Source: an uncultured virus (IMG/VR IMGVR_UViG_3300027896_000015)
Lineage: Duplodnaviria > Heunggongvirae > Uroviricota > Caudoviricetes
Virus record (IMG/VR): IMGVR_UViG_3300027896_000015
Length of the DNA: 64,000 nt
Direction: 5' to 3' (one strand)
Shown one piece after another: positions 10,336 through 24,033 of this stretch. Made by a program: the position numbers and the translations under genes. The notes below the pieces were generated by a model, which was given only the letters and a program-made list of their open reading frames with translations, had not been told where the DNA came from and did no database searches. The stretch's first letter is position 1. Each line of letters begins with the position of its first letter.

Positions 10336-10365
10336 CCAAAGTTCTAGGACAAGGAGATCGCATAC

Positions 10366-10614
10366 ATGGCATTTCATCGAGAAGAACTGATTCGTCTGAG
10401 ATCAAAAGCCGAACTCGAAGCGGCAACTGACGGGATTAATCCTACGTGGCGAAGGGCTTATCTCGCGCTGGCCGACGCCGCCGACCATCTGGACGCGATG
10501 ATCGCACGCGCCAGCGTCAGCGAGTCAAAGCCGACATTGCCACCTGACATCGTGGCTAGCGGTTCGGATCGGTTCTTATCCATGGAACAGCATGTGGTTG
10601 GCGAAAAGGCGTGA
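10366..10614 (+). CDS. hypothetical protein
   Basis: SD AGGAG. Confidence 0.6.
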   Translation: MAFHREELIRLRSKAELEAATDGINPTWRRAYLALADAADHLDAMIARASVSESKPTLPPDIVASGSDRFLSMEQHVVGEKA

Positions 10615-10640
10615 CAGCTTGAACACAAAAGGAGGCTGAT

Positions 10641-11774: not shown

Positions 11775-11940
11775 CGCAAAGCGCGAAGGCAGGCAGCTGT
11801 TCATCCGCAGAGGCAAGAAGACCGTCCGCCTCGACGGTCCTCAGATCAGGGCTCTGAAATGCCTGCTGCGCGACGTCGGCGAGTTCGGCAACAGGATCAA
11901 CAGGCAGCGCTGCAAGATCACGGACGAGATACTGATCTAG
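11680..11940 (+). CDS. small basic hypothetical protein
   Basis: SD GGAGG; overlaps the end of the upstream ORF. Confidence 0.55.
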   Translation: MSAIISKCSRIWGFHKGRKTSMTYQRPVSSNDAKREGRQLFIRRGKKTVRLDGPQIRALKCLLRDVGEFGNRINRQRCKITDEILI

Positions 11941-11960
11941 CAATCGCGATGAAAAATGTG

Positions 11961-11989
11961 TTGACGCAGGCAGGAATTTCTGCTACCAT
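11961..11989 (+). promoter_or_regulatory. sigma70-like promoter of tRNA cluster 1
   Basis: TTGACG-17-TACCAT with TG extension. Confidence 0.75.
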
Positions 11990-12021
11990 TTGAGAACAAA
12001 CGGTGGAGAAAGAGAAAAGCA

Positions 12022-12066
12022 ATGTACACGATTCCAGAACATCGGATTGAGGAGCCCCCGCAATAG
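12022..12066 (+). CDS. leader peptide 1 (MYTIPEHRIEEPPQ)
   Basis: 14-codon ORF between promoter and terminator; codons match the downstream tRNAs. Confidence 0.75.
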   Translation: MYTIPEHRIEEPPQ

Positions 12067-12147
12067 GGCGGCCGATCGGTTGCTGTTCTGGAAAAGAACG
12101 ACAAGATGAGGCCGCCTCCAGCGGAAGCTGAGGGCGGCTTTTGTTTT
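12040..12147 (+). promoter_or_regulatory. attenuator 1 (antiterminator/terminator)
   Basis: Terminator 12110-12147 with GGAA loop and T run; 12066-12073 GGGCGGCC can pair with 5' arm GGCCGCCT. Confidence 0.75.
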
Positions 12148-12150
12148 AAC

Positions 12151-12227
12151 TGGCGCGTAGCTCAACTTGGTAGAGCAGCTCTCTGATGAGGAGCCGGTCG
12201 TGGGTTCGACTCCCGCCGCGCCAACCA
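12151..12227 (+). tRNA. tRNA-Ile(GAT)
   Basis: Cloverleaf, loop CTGATGA, encoded CCA. Confidence 0.9.
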
Positions 12228-12237
12228 TTGCGTACAT

Positions 12238-12314
12238 GTTGGCCGTAGCTCAACTGGAAGAGCGCCAGACTGTGGATCTGGCCGTTGCGGGTTCGAATCC
12301 CGTCGGTCAACCCA
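12238..12314 (+). tRNA. tRNA-His(GTG)
   Basis: G-1:C73, loop CTGTGGA, CCA. Confidence 0.95.
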
Positions 12315-12328
12315 GTTTTGATGAGGAA

Positions 12329-12405
12329 GCCTCTGTCGTCTAAATGGACAGGATTTGTGGTTCTCAGCCACAGGATTGCGGGTTCGAACCCCGCCGGAGG
12401 CGCCA
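12329..12405 (+). tRNA. tRNA-Glu(CTC)
   Basis: Loop TTCTCAG, CCA. Confidence 0.9.
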
Positions 12406-12412
12406 AAGATAC

Positions 12413-12489
12413 GACCCAGTGGACGAACTGGAAGAGTCGGCAGCCCTTCAAGCTGCAGTTTGGGGGTTCAACTCCCCTCTGGGTCGCCA
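12413..12489 (+). tRNA. tRNA-Glu(TTC), C33
   Basis: Stem GCAGC/GCTGC, loop CCTTCAA, CCA. Confidence 0.8.
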
Positions 12490-12511
12490 ACGTAAACGGA
12501 AAGGCGAAGCG

Positions 12512-12706
12512 ATGAAAACAAAATGCGACTACTGCGGGAAGGAGCCTCCGAAGCAGACCGACTGCTGGCCGACATGGTTCGGCAGATACCGGGACGGAGA
12601 ACTGGTGTCGGTGATCTGCAAGCGGTGCTTTACTGAAAACGGGAACTCGTGGGACAAGACGATTGTTTCAAGGAACAAAAAACAGGGGTTGGCCCAGTCT
12701 AGTTAG
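12512..12706 (+). CDS. small CxxC..CxxC protein inside the tRNA cluster
   Basis: MKTKCDYCG...ICKRC; 3' end overlaps tRNA-Pro. Confidence 0.5.
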   Translation: MKTKCDYCGKEPPKQTDCWPTWFGRYRDGELVSVICKRCFTENGNSWDKTIVSRNKKQGLAQSS

Positions 12707-12760
12707 GGCGCCTCCTCGGGGGGGAGGAAGTCGCCGGAGCGGAGCCGGCACCCCTGACCA
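12683..12760 (+). tRNA. tRNA-Pro(GGG), C33
   Basis: Stem CCTCC/GGAGG, loop TCGGGGG, atypical T-loop AGCGGAG, CCA. Confidence 0.8.
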
Positions 12761-12764
12761 TTTT

Positions 12765-12841
12765 CTAGGAGTAGTTCAGTTCAGGAGAACGCGGCGTTCG
12801 GGTCGCCGAGGTCGCGGGAGCGAAGCCCGCCTCCTAGACCA
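12765..12841 (+). tRNA. tRNA-Pro(CGG)
   Basis: Loop TTCGGGT, T-loop AGCGAAG, CCA. Confidence 0.85.
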
Positions 12842-12849
12842 TTTTAAAT

Positions 12850-12928
12850 CCGAGAGTAGTTCAGCCCAGTTTAGAACGTCGCGTTTGGGGCGCGAAGGCC
12901 GCGGGAGCGAAGCCCGCCTCTCGGACCA
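12850..12928 (+). tRNA. tRNA-Pro(TGG)
   Basis: Loop TTTGGGG, T-loop AGCGAAG, CCA. Confidence 0.85.
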
Positions 12929-12981
12929 TTTTGATGTACCGAGCAGGTATGACATGAAGGTTGGTGAGAAATAAATATCGC

Positions 12982-13353
12982 ATGAAAATCATCCGCATCA
13001 TCGAATCCGAAGAACAAGAAGGCTGGATCGCCGTCGACCTTGACGGAACCCTGGCCGAATTCCACAAGTACGACCCCAAAGATCACTCGATCGGCAAGCC
13101 CGTCCCGAAGATGCTGGAACGCGTCAAGAAATGGCTGGACGAGGGCAGGGACGTCCGCCTGATGACGGCCAGGGCCGCGGCCGACGAGGATCGCGACGTC
13201 CATCTCAGGCTGATCAAGGAATGGATGCTGGAGCATCTCGGCAGGACGATCCCGATCACCTGCTCCAAGGATCAGCACATGATCGAGCTTTGGGACGACA
13301 GGGCCGTGCAGGTCGTCCCGAACACCGGAGAGAGGGCGGACGGCAAGGAATAG
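12982..13353 (+). CDS. HAD-family phosphatase (polynucleotide 3'-phosphatase-like)
   Basis: IAVDLDGTLA, LMTAR, K, LWDDR motifs. Confidence 0.85.
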   Translation: MKIIRIIESEEQEGWIAVDLDGTLAEFHKYDPKDHSIGKPVPKMLERVKKWLDEGRDVRLMTARAAADEDRDVHLRLIKEWMLEHLGRTIPITCSKDQHMIELWDDRAVQVVPNTGERADGKE

Positions 13354-13373
13354 CTTCTCCGTTAAAACAGCAC

Positions 13374-13402
13374 TTGACTTCCAGCATTATTTATGGTACA
13401 TT
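13374..13402 (+). promoter_or_regulatory. sigma70-like promoter
   Basis: TTGACT-17-TACATT with TG extension. Confidence 0.65.
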
Positions 13403-13445
13403 CATCTTCATCAAACAGCAGCGAGAAAGGCGACAGGGCACCCCA

Positions 13446-13766
13446 ATGAAAAAACAAAGCGACGTGGCGGTCAAGTTCAAGCGCGACATGAAGTTCAGAT
13501 ATGCCGGCAGGGCGGCGGCTGATGCCGCCATCAAGTCCGGATCGTCATCGTTTGCGGACGCCGCCAAGAAAATCCGAAGACGTCATTGGATGGCCGGGAA
13601 CGAGTTTTTCATCCAGCTTTTCAGTTTGTGCAGGACTCGGGAAGATGTGGATGCCGCCATGTCGGCCCTCAGCCTTTATCCTCCGAAGTCGCCGACGTGG
13701 AGCTTGTGTATGGTCAACGACGCTGAAACCAGAATGGTGATGCGCGTCGCGGACGCCACATCGTAA
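13446..13766 (+). CDS. hypothetical protein, paralog 1 of 3
   Basis: Shared G..AAD.A...G ... W..G..FF..LF..C ... PPK.P. Confidence 0.75.
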   Translation: MKKQSDVAVKFKRDMKFRYAGRAAADAAIKSGSSSFADAAKKIRRRHWMAGNEFFIQLFSLCRTREDVDAAMSALSLYPPKSPTWSLCMVNDAETRMVMRVADATS

Positions 13767-13801
13767 TCGTTCGCGCCAACCCGCAAGAGGCCTGGCAGAC
13801 C

Positions 13802-14146
13802 ATGAAAAAACAGGAAAACAGGATCATCATTTTTCGAATCCCAACGCTGAAGCAAATCGGAGCGCAGCTCAAACACAACAGGAAGTTAAGAAATACTGGG
13901 AAAGCCGCTGCTGATTCCGCCATCGCCTCCGGAATATTTTCGTTTACGGAGACGGCCAAGAAGATGCGAAGACATCATTGGGTGACGGGCTACGCATTCT
14001 TCATGAGGCTTTTTGACTCCTGCAAGACTTTGCCAGAGGCAAAATCAGCTTTGGCGGCTTTTGATCTTCACCCGCCGAAATGCCCCTGGCCGATCATGTT
14101 CACGTTTCGACAAGTGGAGTCTGAGATGATGGAACGCGTTTCCTGA
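13802..14146 (+). CDS. hypothetical protein, paralog 2 of 3
   Basis: Same motif. Confidence 0.75.
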   Translation: MKKQENRIIIFRIPTLKQIGAQLKHNRKLRNTGKAAADSAIASGIFSFTETAKKMRRHHWVTGYAFFMRLFDSCKTLPEAKSALAAFDLHPPKCPWPIMFTFRQVESEMMERVS

Positions 14147-14192
14147 TGGCGCATCTTGTGGACGTTAGCGTGTCAGCTGCGGGGATTGTGAT

Positions 14193-14552
14193 ATGGTGAT
14201 CCCAATGAAAGCAAAGAACATACGGAGAAAGTCTCCAGAAATTACCGAGAAATATGTCGCCGAACTGCGTCGCAGGAACGTCCGTCATCGCGAATCCGGG
14301 ACGAATGCCGCTGACGCCGCCGTCCGTTTCGGCGTGTTCGCATACAGCCGAGCGTCACAGGCGTTACGCAATAGAAGCTGGGTAGCGGGATACGCATTTT
14401 TCCGCAGGCTATTCGAGTCCTGCAGAAACAAGCGTCAATTCGTCGCCGCATGCGAGGCCTTCGACAGGCATCCGCCGAAGTGTCCCCCGCCAATGATGGC
14501 TATCTTGAGGTCGGCCGCCGCGGACGCCGCTGCGGCCGCCGGCTGTCGCTAG
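14193..14552 (+). CDS. hypothetical protein, paralog 3 of 3
   Basis: Same motif. Confidence 0.75.
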   Translation: MVIPMKAKNIRRKSPEITEKYVAELRRRNVRHRESGTNAADAAVRFGVFAYSRASQALRNRSWVAGYAFFRRLFESCRNKRQFVAACEAFDRHPPKCPPPMMAILRSAAADAAAAAGCR

Positions 14553-15730
14553 GACGCCTGTCCCATTTGGATCAAGGCGGTCGCGTCTTCGTCGTCTATC
14601 AGCCTGCCTTGGTCGAAGCCCTCGGAAAAGGCCGTCTCCAGCATGGCATTGATGTTCTCGTTCTTGACCTGGGCGGCGGCCAGCCTCTGCATCATCTCCT
14701 GGGATGATCGTACGCGTTCCGTCATGTTGGTGAGTATCTTGTTCGCATACGGCTTCATGTCTATATGGACGACCATCGTCTGCGCATGCCAGTCGCCAGG
14801 AACCTTCCCCTTCTGATTAACGACGCGGCGGAGGTCGAATTTTTCCTCGTGATCCCTGATCTTGTCGGCAAGCTCCTTGAGTTCCTCTCCCAAACCCAGG
14901 TTTGCCATGACGCCAGACACCTCGCTGCGCTTGGTCAGTTCGAACGTCTTCTTTTTCGGGGATATGACATAGTTGGATGACTCCTCGTTCGTTATGTCCG
15001 AGAACCACCGGATGGCGTTCATCAGCGTCGCGACCTCGGCGCCGGTGACGTGCAGGTGGTAGACGGTCTCCCAGTTGCCGTGCTGCGCCCCGACGGACTT
15101 GATCCATCCGCTGCCGTTCCTGGCGATGAACCCAGCCGCGTTCAGCATGCGCACAATCTGGTCTGCGTTCGTCGGCGTCCTGGCGGCGTATTGCTGAGCC
15201 GGAGCGTATACGTGCCGTTCAGACGGCTTGTCGATGCGGGCGCGAATGAGCCCTGTGAACTCCCCTTGCAGTTCGTTCATGGCGATGCCGTTCATGGTCG
15301 GCACGAGGTGCGGCTTGCTGGGATGGAAAACGAACGAGGTTCCGAGGCGGAACTTTCTGTCGGCCGCAATGTACGGATCGACAGCCGTGCGGAATTTCGG
15401 CGACACCCTGTACAACTGGAAGAAGGCGTCGTGCACGATCGCCTGCGCTTCGCTGTCGTCCACCGCCACGTTGTTGACGCGCAGCGTGGCGTCGTCCCCT
15501 TGCTTGAAAGCTATGGCGTTCGACAGGGCCTGTTCGTCAAAAGACCCTGGGATGCCGTTGGCGGCCTGAGTTTCGGCAGCCGGCGCTTCGGCGGCCGACT
15601 TATGCAACCCTTGAGCCGACGACGTCAGAATCCTGCTCTGCAGCCAGCCTGTTTTCAGGCCGAGAAACTTCCAAAACGTCCGCGACATGGTCAGCCTCTT
15701 TCCGTCCTTTGAAACCGCTATCTTGATCAT
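14549..15730 (-). CDS. hypothetical protein (probable virion-associated)
   Basis: 393-aa ORF coupled to the radical SAM gene; N-terminus similar to that of 5733-6620. Confidence 0.75.
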   Translation of the reverse strand: MIKIAVSKDGKRLTMSRTFWKFLGLKTGWLQSRILTSSAQGLHKSAAEAPAAETQAANGIPGSFDEQALSNAIAFKQGDDATLRVNNVAVDDSEAQAIVHDAFFQLYRVSPKFRTAVDPYIAADRKFRLGTSFVFHPSKPHLVPTMNGIAMNELQGEFTGLIRARIDKPSERHVYAPAQQYAARTPTNADQIVRMLNAAGFIARNGSGWIKSVGAQHGNWETVYHLHVTGAEVATLMNAIRWFSDITNEESSNYVISPKKKTFELTKRSEVSGVMANLGLGEELKELADKIRDHEEKFDLRRVVNQKGKVPGDWHAQTMVVHIDMKPYANKILTNMTERVRSSQEMMQRLAAAQVKNENINAMLETAFSEGFDQGRLIDDEDATALIQMGQAS

Positions 15731-16536
15731 GATTTTCTCCCCCTTCTTTGTCTCCTGTTGAACGACCTAAACTGGCGTCTCCACGTCCTCGACAGCAGGT
15801 CCTTGTCGCACTTGGCGACATAGAGCTGGTAGAAGCCGCACTTGGGGCAGACGTCCTTGAACTGTGCGATCATCGATTCCACTGTGACGTCCCCGATATC
15901 CTTGACGGCGATGTCCAGGCCGAAGACCCTGGCGATGCCCGCCGCTATGCTGCAGCAATAGAAGCCCCTGTAGTCGTATCCCAGGCCGCACAGGCGGCCT
16001 CCGAGATGGCACCCCTTATAGTCGTGCTTCCGGCTCATCTTAGGGTCGTCCACGGGCGCCAGGCAGACGGCATACCGGTGTTCCCGAGGCTTCTCCTTCA
16101 TTGTGTCCAAGACGACCAGGTCGGGGTACTGCTTGAGCATCCTTTCGACCTTCTCAAAATGGACCGGATGATGGTAGGTGTAGGTCCCGGAGTAGCATTT
16201 CGGATTGTACAGCCTTTTGTACCGCATGATCGCGTGGATCAGATCCTCGAACCTCGGATGCATGGTCGGCTCGCCCCCGGTCAGGGTGATGCGCGTCCAT
16301 ATCCGTCCGGTCTTGCCGCATTTCTCCAGCATGGCGGCCAGGACGTCAGGATCGACGTCCTCGTTGTGGCCAGCCGGCGCCAAGCTCGTGAAGCGGTTGC
16401 AGTTCGGGCATCTCCGGTCGCAGACGTAGGTGGTCTCGACCTTCAGGTGGGGCATCCGGGGCGTGTAGTACCCCTCCGCCTCGACGTACGGCCTGTCAAG
16501 ACAGGGGCGGAATACAATAGGCTGTCGCGATCGCAT
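15727..16536 (-). CDS. radical SAM protein
   Basis: CDRRCPNC (CxxxCxxC), LTGGEPTMHP, C-terminal Cys cluster. Confidence 0.9.
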   Translation of the reverse strand: MRSRQPIVFRPCLDRPYVEAEGYYTPRMPHLKVETTYVCDRRCPNCNRFTSLAPAGHNEDVDPDVLAAMLEKCGKTGRIWTRITLTGGEPTMHPRFEDLIHAIMRYKRLYNPKCYSGTYTYHHPVHFEKVERMLKQYPDLVVLDTMKEKPREHRYAVCLAPVDDPKMSRKHDYKGCHLGGRLCGLGYDYRGFYCCSIAAGIARVFGLDIAVKDIGDVTVESMIAQFKDVCPKCGFYQLYVAKCDKDLLSRTWRRQFRSFNRRQRRGRKS

Positions 16537-16608
16537 ATACTATGTTTCTCAGAAAGGCCGGGCTTTTCCCTTGCGTTTTTCATCCCGGATGTGGTACGAT
16601 GCTGCCGA

Positions 16609-17166
16609 ATGGACATTCCGTCTAAGACTGTCATGGAGCTCAGGAAAAGGACGGGTCTTCCCGTGATGGACTGCAAAAGGGCGCTGCAGCAGTCCCAAGG
16701 GAACTCAGCCCAGGCGATCATTCTGCTCCGCAGCCAAGGGCACAGGGTCTCGCCCGCCGGAGACCAAGGATCCTCCGGGTTCGGCATGATCGCCATGTAC
16801 AACCATTTCTTCGGGAAGATCGGGGCCATGGTCGAGGTCAGATGCCAGACGGACTTCGCCGCCAAGACGCCGGAGTTCATCAAGCTGTGCAACCACATCG
16901 CCATGCACGTCGCCTGGGCCAAGCCCAAGCACATATCGAGGGACGACGTCCCCCCGGCCGTCATCGAATGCATGGTGGGGGAATTCCAGGAGGTCTTCGA
17001 GAAATACTGTTCGGAAGCCTGCCTGATGGACCAGCTTGAGATGAAGGCCAGCCAGGGCACGAAAACGATCGGCCAGATGATCGCCGAGGAGTCGCACAGG
17101 CTGGGGGAGAAGATCACAGTGGTGCGGTTTTCCAGATTCGCTCTGGGGGAATCCGATGCCCATTGA
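16609..17166 (+). CDS. tsf: short-type translation elongation factor Ts
   Basis: ELRKRTGLPVMDCKRAL, VEVRCQTDFAAK, IAMHVA..P, LGEKITVVRFSRFALGE; promoter TTGCGT-18-TACGAT at 16571-16600. Confidence 0.92.
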   Translation: MDIPSKTVMELRKRTGLPVMDCKRALQQSQGNSAQAIILLRSQGHRVSPAGDQGSSGFGMIAMYNHFFGKIGAMVEVRCQTDFAAKTPEFIKLCNHIAMHVAWAKPKHISRDDVPPAVIECMVGEFQEVFEKYCSEACLMDQLEMKASQGTKTIGQMIAEESHRLGEKITVVRFSRFALGESDAH

Positions 17167-17608
17167 CGCCAAAACAGCCGCCCAGATGCGCGACTTCGCT
17201 TTCGGTAAGCCGAAGGAGAAGCCTGTTCAGGCCGTCGACAGCCGCCATGTTCTGCTGTCGGCCTGCGCCATGGCCGTCCAAAAGATGTCCGCGTCGTCCG
17301 ATCCCGCGAAAGCGGCGCGGGAGATGCATGTCAGGGTCCGCGAAGGAGGACTGAACGAGTTCTTCAAGCTGCTGCGCGAACTGGGGTCGTCCTGCAGCGA
17401 CGACGCCTTCGTCTTGGCTGACGCCGTAAACGAGGACGCCCGATCGTCGTTCTTGAAGTCCGTCGTCCTGCTGTCAGTCAAGGACATGGAGGAGTTCCTG
17501 GAGTGGATGCTGTCGATTGTCTCCAAATTGGAGACGGCTGATATTCCTCCTATCGGAGCCAAGCAGAAGCCCGTATGCGAATGGAGCGACCATGAGCCGG
17601 CTGGCTGA
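17156..17608 (+). CDS. hypothetical protein
   Basis: Overlaps the tsf stop. Confidence 0.65.
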   Translation: MPIDAKTAAQMRDFAFGKPKEKPVQAVDSRHVLLSACAMAVQKMSASSDPAKAAREMHVRVREGGLNEFFKLLRELGSSCSDDAFVLADAVNEDARSSFLKSVVLLSVKDMEEFLEWMLSIVSKLETADIPPIGAKQKPVCEWSDHEPAG

Positions 17609-17804
17609 AAAAATCGAACGGAGAAGGGCGGCGAGGGGGGCGGCCAGGGCGCGTTCGCGCGCGTCCAGCGGGGAGGCGTACATCTTGAGGGCAAGAGAGA
17701 CGTACCGAAGCCGGCATCCGGACGGGATCAGAGGAGGGGCGATAGTGCGGACCTTGGAGGATAAGGCGGCGATCGCGCCGATGATGTTCCGGCTGCTTTT
17801 TTGA
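17592..17804 (+). CDS. small Arg-rich hypothetical protein
   Basis: SD GGAG; coupled to upstream ORF. Confidence 0.5.
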   Translation: MSRLAEKIERRRAARGAARARSRASSGEAYILRARETYRSRHPDGIRGGAIVRTLEDKAAIAPMMFRLLF

Positions 17805-17813
17805 AAAATATGG

Positions 17814-17842
17814 TTGACTTTGGCAGGAATTTGTGGGATCAT
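17814..17842 (+). promoter_or_regulatory. sigma70-like promoter of tRNA cluster 2
   Basis: TTGACT-17-GATCAT; spacer shares GGCAGGAATTT with the cluster-1 promoter. Confidence 0.65.
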
Positions 17843-17870
17843 TCGAGTACAAGTGAATGAGGAAGAACAC

Positions 17871-17944
17871 TGCGGAATAGAGCAATAGTAGCTCGTCGGG
17901 TCCATACCCCGGAGTTCTGGGTGCGAATCCCAGTTCCGCTACCA
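17871..17944 (+). tRNA. initiator-type tRNA-fMet(CAT), C33
   Basis: 1:72 mismatch, three G-C pairs in the anticodon stem, loop TCCATAC, CCA. Confidence 0.85.
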
Positions 17945-17962
17945 GTTTTTGGAGATCGAAGA

Positions 17963-18046
17963 ATGCTGACCGTAGGAACAAAGGCAGTGAAAGCCGCGGG
18001 TGCGACGAAAGTCGCCACCCGGCAGGGGCTTTCCGTCTTTGTCTAA
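17963..18046 (+). CDS. leader peptide 2 (MLTVGTKAVKAAGATKVATRQGLSVFV)
   Basis: SD GGAG at 17951; codons 3-19 are only T/V/G/K/A, matching the downstream tRNAs. Confidence 0.8.
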   Translation: MLTVGTKAVKAAGATKVATRQGLSVFV

Positions 18047-18110
18047 TCGGAACAGACATAGTCGGACAAGAAGGAAGGCCCCGTCGGAAGACGAGGGCCT
18101 TTTTTGTTTT
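17989..18110 (+). promoter_or_regulatory. attenuator 2 (1:2, 2:3 and 3:4 hairpins)
   Basis: GAAAGCC 17989-17995 / GGCTTTC 18027-18033; GGGGCTTTCC 18025-18034 / GGAAGGCCCC 18073-18082; terminator 18075-18110 with GGAA loop and T run. Confidence 0.8.
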
Positions 18111-18144
18111 CAGCGTTTGTCGAAACGGTCGAGAGCAGTGAAAT

Positions 18145-18234
18145 GCAGGCGTGTCCGAACTGATTGAAGGGCTCAGACTCTTAATCTGATTGGCATTAGC
18201 CACGCTGCAGGTTCGAATCCTGCCGCCTGCACCA
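18145..18234 (+). tRNA. tRNA-Lys(CTT) with long variable arm
   Basis: Stem TCAGA/TCTGA, loop CTCTTAA, V-arm TGGC-ATTA-GCCA, CCA. Confidence 0.8.
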
Positions 18235-18243
18235 TGATCGTTT

Positions 18244-18319
18244 AGGCGGATGGCGCAACTGGATGCGCGCCTGGTCTACACCCAGGAGGATGCGGGTTCG
18301 AGTCCCGCTCCGCCTACCA
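18244..18319 (+). tRNA. tRNA-Val(TAC), C33
   Basis: Stem CCTGG/CCAGG, loop TCTACAC, CCA. Confidence 0.85.
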
Positions 18320-18370
18320 AGGAGATGGTCATGCAGAAGAGACTGAAACGGTGCGTCAGACGACAGCCAT

Positions 18371-18446
18371 CCGAGCGTAGCTCAGACGGCAGAGCACCGG
18401 TCTTTTAAACCGGGGCGCGCGGGTTCGATTCCCGCCGCTCGGACCA
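18371..18446 (+). tRNA. tRNA-Lys(TTT)
   Basis: Loop CTTTTAA, CCA. Confidence 0.92.
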
Positions 18447-18478
18447 TCTTTGAACGGATCTTTGACAACAGAATATGC

Positions 18479-18554
18479 GCCAACGTAATTCAAATTGGGA
18501 GAATACTCGGCCCGTACCCGAGATACGAGAGTTCAATTCTCTCCGTTGGCTCCA
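18479..18554 (+). tRNA. tRNA-Thr(CGT), C33
   Basis: Stem CTCGG/CCGAG, loop CCCGTAC, CCA. Confidence 0.85.
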
Positions 18555-18556
18555 AT

Positions 18557-18632
18557 GCGACGGTAACTCAATTGGTAGAGTGCTATCCCTCCAAGTTAGC
18601 TGTTGTGGGTTCAAGTCCCATCCGTCGCTCCA
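18557..18632 (+). tRNA. tRNA-Gly(TCC), C33
   Basis: Loop CCTCCAA, T73, CCA. Confidence 0.85.
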
Positions 18633-18636
18633 CTTC

Positions 18637-18712
18637 GCCGATGTAGCTCAAATGGTAGAGTACCTGACCTGTAATCAGGGGGTTGTCGGATCATGCCCGA
18701 CCATCGGCTCCA
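18637..18712 (+). tRNA. tRNA-Thr(TGT), C33
   Basis: Stem CCTGA/TCAGG, loop CCTGTAA, CCA. Confidence 0.85.
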
Positions 18713-18769
18713 ATTTTGGCTCCAGTATGTCCACAAAACGGGGACATACCGGCAACGCGTTTGTGTTTT

Positions 18770-18844
18770 GGGCCAGTAGCATTAATGGCTAATGCACCTC
18801 GTCCGCACCGAGGATTTTTGTCAGTTCGAATCTGACCTGGTCCA
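18770..18844 (+). tRNA. tRNA-Ala(CGC), C33
   Basis: G3:U70, loop TCCGCAC, no encoded CCA. Confidence 0.85.
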
Positions 18845-18864
18845 CTCATGCTAATGAATCAAAC

Positions 18865-18936
18865 GGGGGCTTGGCCTAGATGGATGGGCGGTGGCTTTGC
18901 AAGCCACATAGGTGGGATCGTTACCCACAGCTTCCA
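18865..18936 (+). tRNA. tRNA-Ala(TGC)
   Basis: Stem GTGGC/GCCAC, loop TTTGCAA, G3:U70, divergent T-loop, no encoded CCA. Confidence 0.75.
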
Positions 18937-18940
18937 TTTC

Positions 18941-19014
18941 GCGGACATGATGTAGTGGCAACATAGATTCTTGCCGAGAATCATTCGTGAGTTCGAACCT
19001 CACTGTCCGCTCCA
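18941..19014 (+). tRNA. tRNA-Gly(GCC)
   Basis: Loop TTGCCGA, T73, CCA. Confidence 0.9.
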
Positions 19015-19081
19015 CGTTCGACGAGATAACGGTTGCACAACGCATCCAGATCGTGGTATAATGCCCGCGAAAGGACGCTAT

Positions 19082-19735
19082 ATGGTCACGCTTCAATTCG
19101 ACGGATGCTGCCTGCCGTACAACCCGGGAGGGATCGCCTGCGGCGGCTTCGTCCTTCTGGACGGCAACAGGGAGATCGCTTCCGGCGCCGAGGTCGTATC
19201 CGAGCACGGGACGAACAACGAGGCCGAATATGCCGGCTTGGAGCTGGGCCTGTGGAAGGCCAAGGAGTTCGGAATCCGCAGAATGGAGGCCGTGGGCGAC
19301 TCCATGCTGGTCGTCATGCAGGTGTCTGGGGAATGGGCCGTCAAGTCGCCGTCGATGGCCGAATGCGTCGGCAGATGCCGGAAGCTGATTAAAGGCTTCA
19401 GCAGCTTCGAGATCGATTGGATCCCCCGCGAGGAGAACCGCCGCGCCGACCGTATTGTGCACAAACGCTGGATGGACGCGTTCGAAAGCAGGAGCCTTGA
19501 TGCCTCCGCGTCCATCGGAGCCGACTGCATGTCTCTGGCGGGAGGCGGAAAGCTCTACGTGGTCGGCAGCCAGCGATATCTGGTCGATCCCAGGAAGCCG
19601 TCATGTTCGTGCCGGGACTTCGAGAACAAGAACCGCTCGCCGCTGCTGGAGCGCAGCCGGCTGGTCGCCAGATGCAAGCATATTTTGGCCGCGCAGAGGG
19701 AGATGAAGGCCGAAACCATCAGGGGGCAGGCTTGA
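19082..19735 (+). CDS. RNase HI-family protein with C-terminal SWIM zinc finger
   Basis: FDG...NPG, TNNEAEY.GL, GDS.LV..Q..G.W, WIPREEN.RAD; CSC.DF...CKH; promoter TTGCAC-18-TATAAT at 19033-19062. Confidence 0.9.
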   Translation: MVTLQFDGCCLPYNPGGIACGGFVLLDGNREIASGAEVVSEHGTNNEAEYAGLELGLWKAKEFGIRRMEAVGDSMLVVMQVSGEWAVKSPSMAECVGRCRKLIKGFSSFEIDWIPREENRRADRIVHKRWMDAFESRSLDASASIGADCMSLAGGGKLYVVGSQRYLVDPRKPSCSCRDFENKNRSPLLERSRLVARCKHILAAQREMKAETIRGQA

Positions 19736-19863
19736 AAATCGATCTTCATTTTCACTATCGCCTCCGCAAAACAGACGCCCAAGACAGGCTCGCCAAGATG
19801 GTCTCGGCCGCCAGGCTTGCCGGACTGGATGCGATCGCTGTCGTCGGGAAGCGGTTTGACGGC
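19732..19863 (+). pseudogene. PHP-domain-like N-terminal fragment truncated by a tnpB element
   Basis: MKIDLHFH...AARLAGLDAIAVV, ending at the element's right end. Confidence 0.5.
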
Positions 19864-21240
19864 GTCAGCTTCTGCCGGGGCTAAAGCCCCGCAGATTGCA
19901 GGCCCAAGGCACCCACAATCGGCCGGCTGACACGGCCTGCCCATAAGGTCTGCCTTCCCCTTTCGGGGGAAGCGGAGGATACGGGGAGATGCGACGTTCT
20001 CGACCACTTCTGCGCGATGTTGATCGCGGCGTTATGGTCGGCGTCCAATTGGACGCCGTCGCTGGCGTAGTACCTGCATCCCCTTCTCACGCCTCGGGCG
20101 ATTCCTCTGGAATCGTCCTGCGACGTGTAGGCGGGGTTAACCGTCTCCACCCTCCTGCCGAGGGATCGTGCCTTGTAGGTCAACATTGTTTTGAACCCGT
20201 AGAAAGGAATCTGCGAAAGCATGTTGTTGTGGCGCCGTCCTTGGCGAACCGTATGCCTCTTGATCTTGGACAGGTCTTCGAGAACCAGCACGTCGGCCCT
20301 CGTCGTCGAGAGAACGGCGTTGGCGAGAAGATGCATCTCGTTCTTGGAGAAGTTACGCTCTTTCCTTCGCATGGCCTTCAGCTTCCTTCTGGCGGAGTGA
20401 GACATGGACTTCTTGGACTGCATCATCCGCTTGTTGTACCGGATGCGTCTTTTGGCGCGCAAAAAGGCGTCCGACTTGAACATCACGCCTTCGCTGGTCA
20501 CGGCCAGCCTGCGCTGGCCGAGATCGATGCCCGCACAGAGAGAGGACTCATGATCAAGGCAGGGGATCTCGAAGCTCATGGCCAGCCAGAACGTTCCTCC
20601 ACGTTCGAAGACGAGCGGATCCAGCATGACGTGCCTGGACATCATCTTGGACAGCCTGGGATACGTATCGATTCTGAATCTCTCCCTCTTGCCTCCGAGT
20701 ACGGAAATTTTGGCGACGTTTCCTGGAAGCATCCTGAAGATGCGGCAGTCGAGCCTCATGGCAAGGTTTGTCATGGACGGAACTTCCTTGACGGATTCTT
20801 TCCACCTTTTGCCTTCGTTGCTTTTGATCGCCTTCCAGGCGGACAAAGCGGCCTGCCTCGCCTTGATGGCGACCTGGGATTTCATTCCTGGAATCCTCAT
20901 GCATTCCTTGTAGGTCCTGGAATGGACGATCTTCTGGTCGAGAATCTTCCTGTCATCCAGATGCTCGAAGATGTATTTGCTGACGATGTCGAAAGCCTGG
21001 CTGTGGGCCGCGAGGGTCTCGTGAAGCTTGGCTTCGACGGGCTTGTCCTCGGCTTCTATTCTGGCAACCCATGTTCTGATGCCTATCTGCATATTATGTT
21101 TATTCTTCAGCGTTCGACGGATTTCCTGCTTGATCTGAAAGATTTTTTGTGTTATTTTTTGTTGTGAAGAACAGGAGAAAGGACATGCGGCGATTTCTCA
21201 GCCAGGGCAGAGACCCTGCGGTATTCTCGCCGAAGATTCG
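19864..21240 (-). mobile_element. IS200/IS605-type tnpB-only element A
   Basis: Both ends homologous to element 45642-47008; TCAT precedes the left end; right end GGGGCTTTAGCCCC hairpin...TGAC. Confidence 0.85.
19881..21092 (-). CDS. tnpB: TnpB (zinc finger absent)
   Basis: AGIDLG, LVLEDL, VNPAYTSQ, LDADHNAAINI. Confidence 0.92.
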   Translation of the reverse strand: MQIGIRTWVARIEAEDKPVEAKLHETLAAHSQAFDIVSKYIFEHLDDRKILDQKIVHSRTYKECMRIPGMKSQVAIKARQAALSAWKAIKSNEGKRWKESVKEVPSMTNLAMRLDCRIFRMLPGNVAKISVLGGKRERFRIDTYPRLSKMMSRHVMLDPLVFERGGTFWLAMSFEIPCLDHESSLCAGIDLGQRRLAVTSEGVMFKSDAFLRAKRRIRYNKRMMQSKKSMSHSARRKLKAMRRKERNFSKNEMHLLANAVLSTTRADVLVLEDLSKIKRHTVRQGRRHNNMLSQIPFYGFKTMLTYKARSLGRRVETVNPAYTSQDDSRGIARGVRRGCRYYASDGVQLDADHNAAINIAQKWSRTSHLPVSSASPERGRQTLWAGRVSRPIVGALGLQSAGL

Positions 21241-21328
21241 ATGAAAACCAGGCTGCATGGTCGGTTCAAGCGAACAAGAACAAGGCCTTGGTTTTCATTT
21301 TGATGAACACGGAAGCAGGAGAATCATC

Positions 21329-21805
21329 ATGAAGAAGAGACACGGGATGAGCGAGGTTCTTTCCAAGACGTTATACGATGAGTTCCCGGCGATCTTCGCC
21401 GAGAAGGACCTGCCGATGTCGGAGACCGCCATGTGCTGGGGCATCCAGTGCGACGACGGGTGGTTCAAGATCATCCGCGAGCTCTGCCTGAAGCTGGACA
21501 TGATTTCGAAGGCGTCTGGAGTCCCGATCGTCGCCACCACCGTCAAGGAGAAGCTGGGCGAGCTGCGGTTCTACATTCGGAACGTGGGCGCGGACAAGAC
21601 CCCGGAACAGAAGCTGTGGCTCTGCATCGCCCATGACGCGATCAGTTCGGCGGGGTGGATAAGTTCGCACGCATGCGAGCTGTGCGGAGAGATGGGGGAT
21701 CTGATGGAAAAGTCGGACAAAAGATGGCTGAAGACCCTGTGCGCCAAGCATGCGAAGTCCGAGGGCTACGTCGAGATCAAGGACAGGGACGAGTCCGCCC
21801 TGTAG
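21329..21805 (+). CDS. phage hypothetical protein
   Basis: CDDGW..II, VKEKLG.LRFY, CELCG, W..TLC..H pattern. Confidence 0.75.
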   Translation: MKKRHGMSEVLSKTLYDEFPAIFAEKDLPMSETAMCWGIQCDDGWFKIIRELCLKLDMISKASGVPIVATTVKEKLGELRFYIRNVGADKTPEQKLWLCIAHDAISSAGWISSHACELCGEMGDLMEKSDKRWLKTLCAKHAKSEGYVEIKDRDESAL

Positions 21806-21819
21806 GGAGGTTAGCCGCC

Positions 21820-22161
21820 ATGAATTATTCGCTCCCGGAAGGATTCGTAAAGGAGCTCGGCTGCACGGTGCGGACATGCGTCGGATGCGGATGCCTCGTC
21901 AGCGGAGGGCCGACGCGCTGCACAAAGTGCGCGAAAGAATTCGAACATAACCGTCACCTGTTGCCCACCGAGGTTGAGCCGATAATTGATAAGGATGAAT
22001 TAAGAAAAGGGAGATACGACCTGTTTGTCACAGCAATGCGAAGGGCGCTGAAGGCGCTCGGCATCAACAACGTGGTGGTCGAACACATCTACCTTCAGTA
22101 TAATCCAAAGAAGAAGTTCTCTTTTAGGGTTTATCGGACCGATGAACGCGGCCAAAAGTAG
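21820..22161 (+). CDS. hypothetical Zn-binding protein
   Basis: CVGCG..CTKC; SD GGAGG. Confidence 0.6.
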   Translation: MNYSLPEGFVKELGCTVRTCVGCGCLVSGGPTRCTKCAKEFEHNRHLLPTEVEPIIDKDELRKGRYDLFVTAMRRALKALGINNVVVEHIYLQYNPKKKFSFRVYRTDERGQK

Positions 22162-22170
22162 CTTAACGGC

Positions 22171-22395
22171 ATGAAGACTTGGTATCGAGCGGTTTGCGAC
22201 GAGCACAAGGAGATGTGCCATATTCTCGTCAGCAATCCGACCTGCGGGGCGCATTTTCTCGGCAAACACGACGCGGATATACAGGCTTGGCTGGAGCTTC
22301 ACGCGAATTGCGAATTGCGTATGGTTCATAGGGACGACCAGCTTGAACCGCTTTTGGGAGCATATGTCGACTGCCCAAGGGACGGCGGGATTTGA
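22171..22395 (+). CDS. hypothetical protein
   Basis: Compact ORF in operon. Confidence 0.6.
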   Translation: MKTWYRAVCDEHKEMCHILVSNPTCGAHFLGKHDADIQAWLELHANCELRMVHRDDQLEPLLGAYVDCPRDGGI

Positions 22396-22407
22396 ATGCG
22401 GCAAGAA

Positions 22408-22484
22408 GGGCACTTAGCTCAGTTGGGAGAGCGTTGCTTCGACACAGCAAAGGTTCACAGGTTCGATCCCTGTAGTGCCCACCA
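22408..22484 (+). tRNA. tRNA-Val(GAC), C33
   Basis: Stem TTGCT/AGCAA, loop TCGACAC, CCA. Confidence 0.9.
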
Positions 22485-22697
22485 ATGGAAGATGTCGTCA
22501 CGGTCGATCGGGAGTTTCTCAGGCACCTTCTGGACTGCCTGAAGAGGCAGAAGTCGCTCGCCAGCCGCTCGGAGTCCGAGGCGGTCGGCAACGAGCAGGA
22601 CGCCATCGACCGCGCGTGGCGGCGCGGGATGAGCATCCTAAGCGGAGGCCAGTCGTCCGATTCGTTTCGATGGAAGGACGACGTTTTCAGCAGATAG
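22485..22697 (+). CDS. hypothetical protein
   Basis: ATG immediately after the tRNA CCA. Confidence 0.5.
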   Translation: MEDVVTVDREFLRHLLDCLKRQKSLASRSESEAVGNEQDAIDRAWRRGMSILSGGQSSDSFRWKDDVFSR

Positions 22698-22709
22698 GCG
22701 GCATGCGCG

Positions 22710-23300
22710 ATGGCTAAGAAGCTTTATTTCCGTCACGGGGCGATGGGAAGCAGCAAGACGGCTAACCTCTTGATGGTAGCCCACAACTACCGCGAGAAGG
22801 GGCAGGAAGTCCTGATCCTGAAGCCGTCCTTGGACACCAGGAGCCCTCCTGGTAAGCTGGCGTCCAGCCTGGGCATCGAGGCCGACGCCGTCGAGATCGG
22901 GATTGACGATTCGGTCGTCGAATTGGTCTCCCGCAGGTGCATTAATCGTCCTCCGGCCTGTATCCTGGTGGACGAGGCCCAGTTCCTTTCCGAGAAGCAG
23001 GTTTCCCACCTCGCGTCCGTTGTTGATTCCATGGATATCCCTGTGATATGCTACGGACTGAGGACTGACTTCCAGGGCAAGCTTTTCGAAGGCAGCGCCG
23101 CCCTGATGGCCATGGCCGACAGCATCGAGGAGATCAAGACGGTATGCTGGTGCGGAAGGAAGGCGTCCTTTAATGCCAGAATCGAGAACGGAAAGGTCGT
23201 CAGGACGGGCCGGCAGATCGAGGTCGGAGGCAGGGACGCTTATGCTTCCCTGTGCCGGAAGCACTGGATGTCGGGGGAACTCGGATGTCAATACCGCTGA
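22710..23300 (+). CDS. tdk: thymidine kinase
   Basis: GAMGSSKT, LVDEAQFL, YGLRTDF.G.LFEGS, Y.SLCRKH. Confidence 0.95.
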   Translation: MAKKLYFRHGAMGSSKTANLLMVAHNYREKGQEVLILKPSLDTRSPPGKLASSLGIEADAVEIGIDDSVVELVSRRCINRPPACILVDEAQFLSEKQVSHLASVVDSMDIPVICYGLRTDFQGKLFEGSAALMAMADSIEEIKTVCWCGRKASFNARIENGKVVRTGRQIEVGGRDAYASLCRKHWMSGELGCQYR

Positions 23301-23536
23301 TGGAACTAAGCTCGCAACAGTTTGCGCGCATCCACGGCTTGGATGCCAAGATGTTCTGGTGCCGGGCGTGCGGCAGCCAGAACACGGTCATCGTGTCGGC
23401 AGACCGACACGGGTTGGGCAATTCAAACAGCTTTTGGTCTGAAGTAGCAGTCTACTGTTGTGACTGTGATCGCAGTCAAAGTGTGCGGGTCAACGGCAGA
23501 CACGTGAGTTTTGACAACGATCCTTTCAGATGCTAG
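23285..23536 (+). CDS. array Zn-ribbon protein
   Basis: CRACG..CCDC..NDPF. Confidence 0.75.
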   Translation: MSIPLMELSSQQFARIHGLDAKMFWCRACGSQNTVIVSADRHGLGNSNSFWSEVAVYCCDCDRSQSVRVNGRHVSFDNDPFRC

Positions 23537-23558
23537 CGGACGACAAGCGGAGGGGCAG

Positions 23559-23798
23559 ATGATGTGGAAGAAAACGCTGTTTTTATGCGGTGGCTGCGGA
23601 AGCCGATCGGGTTCTGTCATGGCTGTTGTCAGGCAGCAGCCGGGACAAAGCCGCCCGTGCATAGTTGTTAAGTGCCAGAACTGCGGCCTGATCTGGGATG
23701 AATTCTTTGACGGCACGACAGGCGAGCCTATTTTTGATGACGCATTAACGGACAAGGAAAAAAGGAATGAAAAGCGCGAAAATATTCGCGGACACTAA
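23559..23798 (+). CDS. array Zn-ribbon protein
   Basis: CGGCG..CQNCG..DDAL. Confidence 0.75.
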   Translation: MMWKKTLFLCGGCGSRSGSVMAVVRQQPGQSRPCIVVKCQNCGLIWDEFFDGTTGEPIFDDALTDKEKRNEKRENIRGH

Positions 23799-24033
23799 CG
23801 GATTGGACGCCGCGATTTTCCAGTGCCAGGTGTGCGGAAACACGGAGACGTTCGTCACGAGCACCTGCTGTTACAATGCTTGCACGCCTGGCGCCAGAAT
23901 GGTCGCCAACGTGCGGTGCCAGGAATGCAAGAAAACGTGGGAAGTTCCGCTGATAGGAGTACCGCTGAATACGGACAGAAGTATGTTTCTGGCAGATCCG
24001 TTCGGCGAAGACGATCAGGGGGCATTCCGATGA
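23767..24033 (+). CDS. array Zn-ribbon protein
   Basis: CQVCG..CQEC..ADPF. Confidence 0.8.
   Translation: MKSAKIFADTNGLDAAIFQCQVCGNTETFVTSTCCYNACTPGARMVANVRCQECKKTWEVPLIGVPLNTDRSMFLADPFGEDDQGAFR

Follow-up and report, generated by a model that had tools for sequence, protein, structure and literature searches.

Two tRNA gene clusters of an uncultured freshwater phage lie within the window, the 64-kb stretch analysed here from a 141-kb contig. Cluster 2 consists of nine tRNA genes on the + strand (18145..19014), identified with ARAGORN as Lys-CTT, Val-TAC, Lys-TTT, Thr-CGT, Gly-TCC, Thr-TGT, Ala-CGC, Ala-TGC and Gly-GCC. All nine score above the Rfam gathering threshold, and their anticodons agree with those given in the initial annotation. 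The genes are preceded by leader ORF 2 (17963..18046, + strand), which contains 27 sense codons followed by TAA and encodes the peptide MLTVGTKAVKAAGATKVATRQGLSVFV. As first read from the sequence, codons 3 to 19 of this ORF specify only Thr, Val, Gly, Lys and Ala. Its sampling zone (17972-18007, +) reads GTA GGA ACA AAG GCA GTG AAA GCC GCG GGT GCG ACG. A Shine-Dalgarno-like GGAGA (17950..17955, +) can be read 7 nt 5′ of the leader ATG.

A further gene, tRNA-Met(CAT) (17871..17944, +), was found by both ARAGORN and Rfam 5′ of leader 2. It has a 1:72 mismatch and A11:T24, and its anticodon stem has GGG:CCC, or three G-C pairs, at the base; we take these to be marks of initiator identity. The gene had been annotated as a tRNA-fMet outside the control of the leader; these initiator-like marks fit that assignment, and its position upstream of leader 2 would place it outside the attenuator proposed below.

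The same arrangement is present at cluster 1, where leader ORF 1 (12022..12066, +) encodes the peptide MYTIPEHRIEEPPQ with the codons ATG TAC ACG ATT CCA GAA CAT CGG ATT GAG GAG CCC CCG CAA TAG. The Shine-Dalgarno sequence of this leader is weak and of the AGAGA type. Seven tRNA genes follow (12151..12928, +), namely Ile-GAT, His-GTG, Glu-CTC, Glu-TTC, Pro-GGG, Pro-CGG and Pro-TGG. ARAGORN detects all seven and Rfam lists six; the Pro-GGG gene (12683-12760), absent from the Rfam listing, forms a full cloverleaf in ARAGORN. Of the 17 tRNAs that ARAGORN finds in 11800-19200, 16 are confirmed by the Rfam tRNA model. A small Cys-rich ORF (12514-12705) is located between Glu-TTC and Pro-GGG.

Each leader is preceded by a promoter-like site on the + strand. 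That of cluster 2 (17814..17842) consists of TTGACT, a 17-nt spacer and GATCAT, with 9/12 consensus matches, and that of cluster 1 (11961..11989) of TTGACG, 17 nt and TACCAT, with the leader 1 ATG at 12022 approximately 25 nt 3′ of it. A 19-nt motif, TTGACNNNGGCAGGAATTT, is common to the two sites and occurs in the window with zero mismatches only at 11961 and 17814. These putative promoters are thus dedicated to the tRNA clusters, as judged from their sequence. When the motif was searched in genome contigs, 16 matches were obtained in unrelated taxa. Three had a tRNA-Lys 409 nt downstream and were rejected as chance; in one of these (L116) the match falls within protein-coding sequence.

Codon match between leaders and tRNA genes

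The central claim of the initial annotation was that leader 2 contains a codon for every one of the nine downstream tRNAs. Coverage was scored under strict decoding, in which U34 is credited for the A-ending codon only. Cognate codons for 9/9 tRNAs are present in leader 2, all within 12 codons (17972-18007), and leader 1 covers 7/7 of its own tRNAs. Full coverage for cluster 2 is reached in 13 of 74,932 open 26-codon windows (six frames, 64 kb), and every one of the 13 overlaps leader 2; the same is true of the six 17-codon windows that attain 9/9 across the same six frames. For cluster 1, only 2 of 96,265 open 13-codon windows reach 7/7, both of which overlap leader 1. When the leader-cluster pairs are swapped, coverage falls to 1/9 and 0/7.

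Synonymous resampling, with the peptide held fixed and the codon usage of the phage applied, gives full coverage in 765/200,000 trials for leader 2 and in 15,216/200,000 for leader 1. At least 20 distinct codons were obtained in 4,433/200,000 resamplings of leader 2. With the window-wide, swapped and synonymous controls all surpassed, a match between leader codons and tRNAs far beyond chance is confirmed.

Several of the leader codons are rare in the phage (GTA 7%, ACA 6%, GCA 9%, GGT 4% and CCA 9%), and it is through such synonymous codons that every isoacceptor is reached. For the tRNAs with G34, sampling is through the wobble codon (GGT in leader 2, ATT and CAT in leader 1) and not through the Watson-Crick one. 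Neither leader is made up entirely of cognate codons: ACC, GCC and GTC in leader 2, and TAC, ACG, CGG and CAA in leader 1, are not read by the tRNAs of the respective cluster.

Relatives of the phage were sought by several routes. In a megablast search, 10000-24000 matched none of 50,697 phage records, searches of viral contigs with single proteins (EF-Ts-like, RNase H-like, TerL) yielded no confirmed relative, and exact DNA patterns for the long tRNA-Lys and the shared promoter had 0 matches in viral contigs. Only 8 weak partial matches were obtained when the EF-Ts-like ORF was used in a homology search. Alignment of TerL recovered 24 viral loci; among ten records from this search that were examined for tRNAs, three contain them (G002, G003 and G004, with G004 contained in G003), and the other seven are fragments with 0 tRNAs. 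The same alignment in metagenomes gave 80 loci, in which only TerL is visible within the 100-nt flanks. The closest relatives by TerL, at 55-60% identity, are metagenome loci (L034-L037).

The distant relative G004, the terminase of which is 41% identical, has matched leaders and terminators before 6/6 tRNA clusters. For 31 of its 34 distinct tRNA species, a cognate codon occurs in the species' own leader. An 8 x 8 comparison of upstream regions with tRNA amino-acid sets, for which operon limits were set post hoc with an earlier result already in view, places the row maximum on the diagonal in 8/8 rows, and the identity alone among 40,320 permutations attains the diagonal sum. A promoter motif of G004 occurs five times in its 296 kb, each time at a tRNA leader. 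Among viral contigs this motif has 13 matches, comprising 10 in G003/G004 and three without a nearby tRNA. The leader peptides of different clusters have no sequence in common; all that they share is that each fits the tRNAs of its own cluster. In the relative G002, a clear matched leader was found at one of 21 tRNA blocks (Asn/Asp), the sole one to score above every mismatched pair. The prediction that concordance would be found in other tRNA clusters was borne out at cluster 1 and throughout the six clusters of G004; G002 largely lacks such leaders.

Leader RNA folding and the proposed attenuator

Three mutually exclusive helices had been described for leader 2, and folding recovered all of them with the pairings as described. 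Hairpin 1:2 (17979..18041, +) is the minimum free energy structure, formed by 17979-17995/18027-18041 with an inner stem 17996-18006/18011-18023; the helix 17989-17995/18027-18033 originally noted is part of this longer hairpin. While the leader is free of ribosomes, hairpin 1:2 would hide segment 2. The 2:3 antiterminator (18025..18082, +) appears on folding with a masked ribosome as 18025-18044/18062-18082. Its core pairs GGGGCUUUCC with GGAAGGCCCC (18025-18034/18073-18082; 10 bp, of which one is G-U), and the pairing continues as far as 18044/18062. The 3:4 hairpin is a predicted intrinsic terminator (18071..18112, +) of -19.4 kcal/mol, with arms 18071-18085/18090-18105 followed by the T tract TTTTTTGTTTT.

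Leader 1 folds into a hairpin 1:2 (12032..12093, +; 12032-12059/12066-12093) and a predicted intrinsic terminator (12108..12148, +) of -23.6 kcal/mol, formed by 12108-12122/12127-12141 and followed by TTTTGTTTT. The terminator ends 2-3 nt 5′ of the first tRNA. An alternative pairing is available between GGCGGCC (12067-12073), directly 3′ of the stop codon, and GGCCGCC (12110-12116). Both terminators are bulged and were missed by a simple terminator scan; they were revealed by folding.

The folds of both leader regions are more stable than those of shuffled sequences, with z = -5.12 for leader 2 and z = -3.93 for leader 1, and with 0/200 shuffles as good in either case. The antiterminator of leader 2 is matched in pairing probability by 3/300 shuffles and in duplex energy by 1/300, at -22.8 kcal/mol vs a shuffle mean of -12.8. 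That of leader 1 is not clearly better than shuffles (99/300 for pairing probability, 17/300 for duplex energy).

A modelled ribosome placed at any of the nine sampling codons of leader 2 leaves the 5′ arm of the terminator sequestered at a probability of at least 0.78, under footprints of A+9, A+12 and A+15. At the last eight positions, from CAG 18023 to the stop codon, sequestration is 0.42-0.55 under the same footprints. This two-zone pattern of ribosome positions was present in 9/9 leaders analysed. For leader 1, the CCG codon is in the read-through zone only under the shortest footprint, A+9. When the truncated leader 2 transcript is taken at equilibrium, the antiterminator forms even without a ribosome (0.89-0.95), and the off state of leader 2 would therefore depend on the order of folding. 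Within the full-length RNA, the terminated conformer is more stable than the antiterminated one for both leader 2 (-73.0 vs -63.1 kcal/mol) and leader 1 (-57.7 vs -49.2 kcal/mol), so that read-through would need kinetic trapping.

It is likely, with some reserve, that each of the two clusters constitutes one transcription unit under the control of a ribosome-mediated multi-codon attenuator, and the phage probably makes the cluster tRNAs mainly when ribosomes read the sampled codons slowly. We infer that the leader ORF is translated, that its translation is coupled to RNA polymerase and that the system responds to stalling. Transcription would begin at the dedicated promoter of the cluster, followed by loading of a ribosome on the short leader ORF as the polymerase heads for the strong intrinsic terminator. 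Under fast decoding throughout, the ribosome would proceed to the 3′ part of the ORF in leader 2, or to the stop codon in leader 1. Segment 2 would thereby be covered, allowing the terminator to form and leaving the tRNA genes silent. A pause at any sampled codon would instead hold segment 1 within the ribosome. Segment 2 would then pair with the terminator's 5′ arm, letting the polymerase continue into the tRNA genes.

As each sampled codon is read by a tRNA encoded past the terminator, the predicted circuit is an OR gate over nine (or seven) isoacceptors with negative feedback. Phage tRNAs would be produced until the combined supply of host and phage suffices for each sampled codon. The trigger may be starvation, a host tRNA pool that does not suit the phage or attack by an anticodon nuclease, none of which is favoured. 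A more tentative proposal, for which the odds are rather against, is that the leaders are isoacceptor-level sensors of tRNA loss, including cleavage by host anticodon nucleases, and that they direct the production of replacement tRNAs. Together with the phage RtcB tRNA ligase they would form a counter-defence circuit, with the initiator tRNA placed ahead so that the sensor is always translatable.

Alternative explanations and comparison with known systems

The strongest competing explanation, itself improbable, is that the same attenuator senses amino-acid supply through the charging of Thr, Val, Gly, Lys and Ala tRNAs, and that the tRNA match holds at the amino-acid level only. As in the trp and his attenuators, stalling looks the same whether a tRNA is absent or uncharged, and leader 2 does include the codons ACC, GCC and GTC, which specify the same amino acids and are unread by the cluster tRNAs. 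The choice of codons is however more diverse than synonymous sampling provides, both in coverage (765/200,000) and in the number reaching at least 20 distinct codons (4,433/200,000). Extra tRNA also gives no relief of an amino-acid shortage, and the output would therefore be mismatched to an amino-acid input.

Slightly less probable again is a terminator that only damps or times tRNA transcription and is relieved, for example, by a phage antitermination protein, the ORFs not acting as sensors. Proteins of this kind are common in phages, and the shuffle result for the leader 1 antiterminator is in keeping with such a role. It leaves unexplained the occurrence of full-coverage ORFs at just these two places in 64 kb, as well as the concordance at 6/6 clusters of G004.

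Direct binding of tRNA by the leader RNA in the manner of a T-box is very unlikely. T-box leaders do control a terminator in response to uncharged tRNA, but no T-box or other cis-regulatory family is recognised by Rfam in 11800-19200 at E up to 1, and only one specifier codon is present in a T-box vs the nine and seven in-frame codons found here after a start codon and Shine-Dalgarno sequence. That the ORFs arise by chance, or specify small peptides that have some separate function, is hardly credible: short ORFs are abundant (208 of at least 20 aa overlap 10000-24000), but the window-wide, swapped and permutation controls speak against chance, and the peptides of different clusters are unlike one another in sequence, alike only in the fit to their own tRNAs.

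The multi-codon attenuator, sensing the tRNAs themselves, remains the preferred reading, and it can be set beside known leader-peptide attenuators. An ORF near a promoter with a ribosome-binding site (GGAGA in leader 2, weak in leader 1), enrichment of regulatory codons and an intrinsic terminator are found at both leaders. An antiterminator that excludes the terminator and has its 5′ strand in the end of the ORF is found for leader 2. With a leader ORF, matched codons, antiterminator and terminator all located there, the earlier reading of this layout as that of a ribosome-mediated attenuator is supported, and the checks on the sequence proposed along with it all gave the predicted result.

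The enterobacterial multivalent attenuators include thrL, which responds to Thr and Ile, and ilvL and ivbL, which respond to Leu, Val and Ile. They resemble the phage leaders in having a promoter-proximal short ORF with regulatory codons for more than one amino acid, an intrinsic terminator and the hairpins 1:2, 2:3 and 3:4. Read-through upon ribosome stalling, which for the phage leaders is a proposal, is a further likeness. The enterobacterial leaders control biosynthetic enzymes and contain runs of one codon, whereas those of the phage control tRNA genes and use synonymous codons, with each isoacceptor sampled mostly once or twice. The two groups lack sequence homology: the Rfam amino-acid operon leaders (Thr, His, Leu, Trp) are absent from the 23 matches that 11800-19200 gives with E up to 1.

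The leader attenuator of the phenylalanyl-tRNA synthetase operon (pheST), pheM, is similar in that it governs a translation component acting on the sensed tRNA. It takes in one amino acid and controls a protein-coding gene, whereas in the phage the sensed tRNA would itself be the output, in direct feedback. The T-box riboswitch also senses the state of a specific tRNA through a terminator/antiterminator switch, but it binds the tRNA directly and free of ribosomes, unlike the many codons in a putative translated frame of the phage leaders. Ordinary bacterial tRNA genes such as E. coli pheV, with promoter, tRNA and terminator in that order, are similar to the phage clusters. An attenuator-like leader at pheV in E. 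coli K-12 was considered and rejected, as the promoter-like TTGACG...TTTAAT is followed directly by the tRNA and neither a leader ORF nor a terminator intervenes.

A full-text literature search, subscription journals and old scans excepted, found no paper on control of tRNA genes by a leader peptide. Phage tRNA genes are usually regarded as constitutively co-transcribed cargo. If the proposal is correct, this would be the first attenuator in which the output is the sensed molecule, and a small natural device that senses how fast particular codons are decoded. It would also explain the grouping of tRNAs by amino acid in these phages, and would provide a signature that can be searched genome-wide, in which the codon set equals the tRNA set. 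Control of this kind would bear on the role of phage tRNAs, in terms of codon-usage compensation vs the evasion of tRNA-targeting defences.

Codon content of the two leaders

The stretch of uncultured phage DNA in the window has a G+C content of 57% and contains 18 tRNA genes (ARAGORN), every one on the + strand. It is present in full in a single sequencing run, a freshwater metagenome from which it may originate. A matched leader and terminator precede 16 of the 18. Nine of these form cluster 2 (18145-19014), behind the short ORF of leader 2 (17963-18046), which has a GGAGA 7 nt upstream. The ORF begins ATG CTG ACC GTA GGA ACA AAG GCA GTG AAA GCC GCG GGT GCG ACG and continues AAA GTC GCC ACC CGG CAG GGG CTT TCC GTC TTT GTC TAA. 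Under strict decoding, in which C34 reads G, U34 is counted for A only and G34 reads C or U, it holds a codon for all nine downstream tRNAs, exactly as the initial annotation had claimed. The nine sampling codons are confined to 12 codons (17972-18007). Coverage of 9/9 occurs in 13 of the 74,932 stop-free 26-codon windows in the six frames of the 64 kb, and all 13 overlap leader 2. Codons for T, V, G, K and A account for 20 of its 26 post-ATG codons, and a single one of all these windows attains that number. The leader 2 codons ACC, GCC and GTC are unread by the cluster 2 tRNAs.

Cluster 1 (12151-12928, + strand) has the same layout. A promoter-like site (11961-11989) is followed by the leader 1 ORF (12022-12066; ATG TAC ACG ATT CCA GAA CAT CGG ATT GAG GAG CCC CCG CAA TAG), a bulged terminator (12108-12141) with TTTTGTTTT, and seven tRNAs in the order Ile-GAT, His-GTG, Glu-CTC, Glu-TTC, Pro-GGG, Pro-CGG and Pro-TGG. 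Coverage is 7/7, reached by only two of 96,265 open 13-codon windows, both overlapping leader 1; TAC, ACG, CGG and CAA are unread by the cluster 1 tRNAs. When the leaders are swapped, coverage drops to 1/9 for leader 1 on cluster 2 and to 0/7 for leader 2 on cluster 1. The concordance proposed earlier stands against these controls, with full-coverage windows only at the leaders. The sequence TTGACNNNGGCAGGAATTT is common to both cluster promoters and has no other copy with 0 mismatches in the window.

With the peptides fixed and codons drawn from the usage of 14 window genes, full coverage was obtained in 765 of 200,000 synonymous draws for leader 2 and 15,216 of 200,000 for leader 1. The leaders also use codons that are rare in the phage: GTA (7% of Val), ACA (6% of Thr), GCA (9% of Ala), GGT (4% of Gly), AAA (17% of Lys), CCA (9% of Pro) and ATT (17% of Ile). 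The rarity of such draws and the use of rare codons argue for leaders that would sense tRNA species, not amino acids.

The two tRNAs without a matched leader and terminator ahead are an initiator-like tRNA-Met (17871-17944, + strand), upstream of leader 2, and a lone tRNA-Val(GAC) (22408-22484, + strand), immediately 3′ of a 74-aa ORF and with neither a leader nor a terminator of any kind ahead of it. GTC, the codon of the latter, is present three times in leader 2. Several tRNAs are unusual in form. The tRNA-Lys(CTT) (18145-18234) is 90 nt long, with A73, an encoded CCA and a long variable arm (4-bp stem) resembling class II tRNAs. Over-long tRNAs also occur in relatives (Lys-TTT 88 nt, Ile-GAT 91, Glu-TTC 91, Cys-GCA 88 and Val-AAC 95); tRNAs for Lys, Ile, Glu, Cys and Val normally have short variable arms. 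The T loops of all three tRNA-Pro genes (12683-12928) are non-canonical and read AGCGGAG or AGCGAAG in place of a TTCGAAT-like sequence. The tRNA-Pro(GGG) has C33, as does the tRNA-Met, and forms a full cloverleaf by ARAGORN, yet is absent among the Rfam tRNA-model matches.

Alternative RNA structures and a modelled ribosome

Compared with dinucleotide shuffles, the folding of leader 2 gave z = -5.12 and that of leader 1 z = -3.93, with 0/200 shuffles as good in each case. The three helices proposed for leader 2 in the initial annotation were recovered. Helix 1:2 of that annotation (17989-17995/18027-18033) is contained in a minimum free energy (MFE) hairpin pairing 17979-17995 with 18027-18041, and the terminator 3:4 folds at 18071-18085/18090-18105. 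Segment 2 (18025-18044), which lies inside the ORF, has an alternative partner in the terminator's 5′ arm (18062-18082). This predicted antiterminator, which excludes the terminator, has a duplex energy of -22.8 kcal/mol, a value equalled in 1/300 shuffles (-12.8 +/- 2.6). The leader 1 antiterminator (GGCGGCC 12067-12073/GGCCGCC 12110-12116) was no better than shuffles (99/300 for pairing probability, 17/300 for duplex energy).

The modelled ribosome occluded A-16 to A+9, A+12 or A+15 on a transcript ending at the terminator loop, so that the 3′ arm was not yet made. In this equilibrium model, whichever of the nine leader 2 sampling codons occupied the A site, the terminator's 5′ arm was paired upstream with a probability of 0.78-0.92 for each of the three reaches. 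The probability was 0.42-0.55, likewise for each reach, when the ribosome stood at one of the final eight ORF positions (CAG 18023 to the stop); with a reach of A+12 the drop starts at GCC 18014. Leader 1 behaved similarly at ATT, CCA, GAA, CAT, GAG and CCC (0.72-0.83 at A+9 and A+12), and its CCG falls within the read-through zone at A+9 only. The two-zone pattern was found in 9/9 leaders analysed.

Truncated leader 2 RNA free of ribosomes still prefers the antiterminator (0.89-0.95). At full length the terminated conformers are the more stable (-73.0 vs -63.1 kcal/mol for leader 2; -57.7 vs -49.2 for leader 1). Folding order and kinetic trapping would therefore have to account for both the off and the on state, as they do in classical attenuators.

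Leaders in distant relatives

Sequence searches reached no close relative. The window carries a terminase large subunit gene (TerL, 41177-42931; phrog_2, E 9e-21), whose exact protein is also recorded on a contig of 141,164 bp. An alignment of 29 terminase sequences led to 24 viral loci. Among ten relative records searched, tRNAs were present in G002 (255 kb, 46 matches), G004 (296 kb, 45 matches) and G003 (476 kb, which includes G004); the other seven were fragments without tRNAs. The G004 tRNA clusters recur in G003 at an offset of ~212 kb. The first ~212 kb of G003, with extra tRNAs at about 20-24, 78-80, 110 and 195-198 kb, may derive from a host or from a join made in assembly, and could point to the host of the G004 lineage.

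G004 is A+T-richer and its TerL is 41% identical. In front of each of its six clusters come a promoter, a short ORF with an AAGGA-type ribosome-binding site, and a strong terminator. The leader peptides are MYATTKTTKTTKTTKKRVASGGLLS ahead of three Thr and two Lys tRNAs, MKKRVEIAIAVVAVAVVADGQGFSALSG ahead of Val, Ala, Ala, Val and Ile, MNNLNNIFRFFSHL ahead of two Phe, MYIREPEREEPPAFGRRSADL ahead of Glu and Pro (six in all), MNVVRDMHIIRRDWSHRASDLRYRMF ahead of four Arg, Trp, two Ile, Val, two Asp, Met and His, and MKSLSLSLCSSYLSLRWTGLCVQRT ahead of two Cys, two Tyr, Leu and Ser. The promoter motif CTTGAAAAG-N12-17-TATAATRGGG has five copies in the 296 kb, all at tRNA leaders. A Met-Tyr start is seen in three leader peptides, those of leader 1 in the window and of the Thr/Lys and Glu/Pro clusters in G004.

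Concordance was tested, with selection controlled, on eight upstream regions (six from G004, two from the window). In each region the ATG ORF with the best score (8-45 codons, within 300 nt) was compared with all eight tRNA amino-acid sets. With the G004 operon limits fixed only after inspection of its clusters, the diagonal was the row maximum in 8/8 rows and the column maximum in 6/8 columns, and its sum was reached by the identity only among 40,320 permutations. High off-diagonal scores occur where sets overlap, as for the Thr/Lys leader against window cluster 2. At the codon level, the leader of the respective cluster contains a cognate codon for 31 of the 34 distinct tRNA species of G004; the exceptions are Glu-CTC, Pro-GGG and Arg-TCG.

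The concordance that the initial annotation proposed to test at other phage clusters holds at 6/6 clusters in G004. It did not extend to most of G002, where, among 21 tRNA blocks, only one leader scored above every mismatched pair, which counts against generality. This leader, MSFKNDNNWRDADDNTSSRLVVRS, lies ahead of Asn and Asp (Trp further on) and has a score of 3.2, the off-diagonal maximum being 3.07; weaker candidates are Arg-TCT (2.85) and Ile/Cys (2.19).

Probable attenuation of phage tRNA genes

The evidence best supports a ribosome-mediated attenuator that would work as an OR gate across the isoacceptors whose genes follow the terminator, with the phage's own tRNAs exerting negative feedback on it. 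The initiator-like tRNA-Met ahead of leader 2 would fit this reading because the sensor cannot work without initiation. In a G+C-rich host the natural trigger could be scarcity of the tRNAs for A/U-ending codons; host shut-off, starvation and anticodon nucleases are further candidates, the last made attractive by the presence of an RtcB tRNA ligase gene (1078-2331, E 7e-99).

Translation and RNA-repair genes lie around the clusters: the RtcB ligase, an ORF (15748-17166) in which an EF-Ts domain spans residues 293-407 only, and an RNase H-like (RVT_3) protein gene (19082-19735). A Cys-rich small ORF (12514-12705; ~63 aa, two Cys-x-x-Cys pairs) lies between Glu-TTC and Pro-GGG in cluster 1, overlapping the start of Pro-GGG; co-transcription with the tRNAs would place it under the attenuator too. 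The window also carries two TnpB/IS605 OrfB-like genes and a third transposase-like ORF (30791-32278, - strand; 45790-46992, + strand; 3446-4963, - strand, respectively), the pair having OrfB_IS605 plus a Cas12f1-like TNB domain.

The attenuator would work in the same mode as the multivalent thr and ilv leaders and pheM, the leader of pheST, and is not homologous to them; no Rfam leader or T-box family matched the tRNA-cluster region (11800-19200) at E up to 1. The genes that would be controlled here are tRNAs. Unlike the window clusters, the ordinary tRNA gene pheV of E. coli has no leader between promoter and tRNA. Full-text searches of the literature outside subscription journals and old scans yielded no account of leader-peptide control of tRNA genes, in agreement with the earlier statement that none was known for phage tRNA arrays. 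With two sequence-unrelated leaders, one promoter type and complete codon-level coverage, the window is a particularly clean example.
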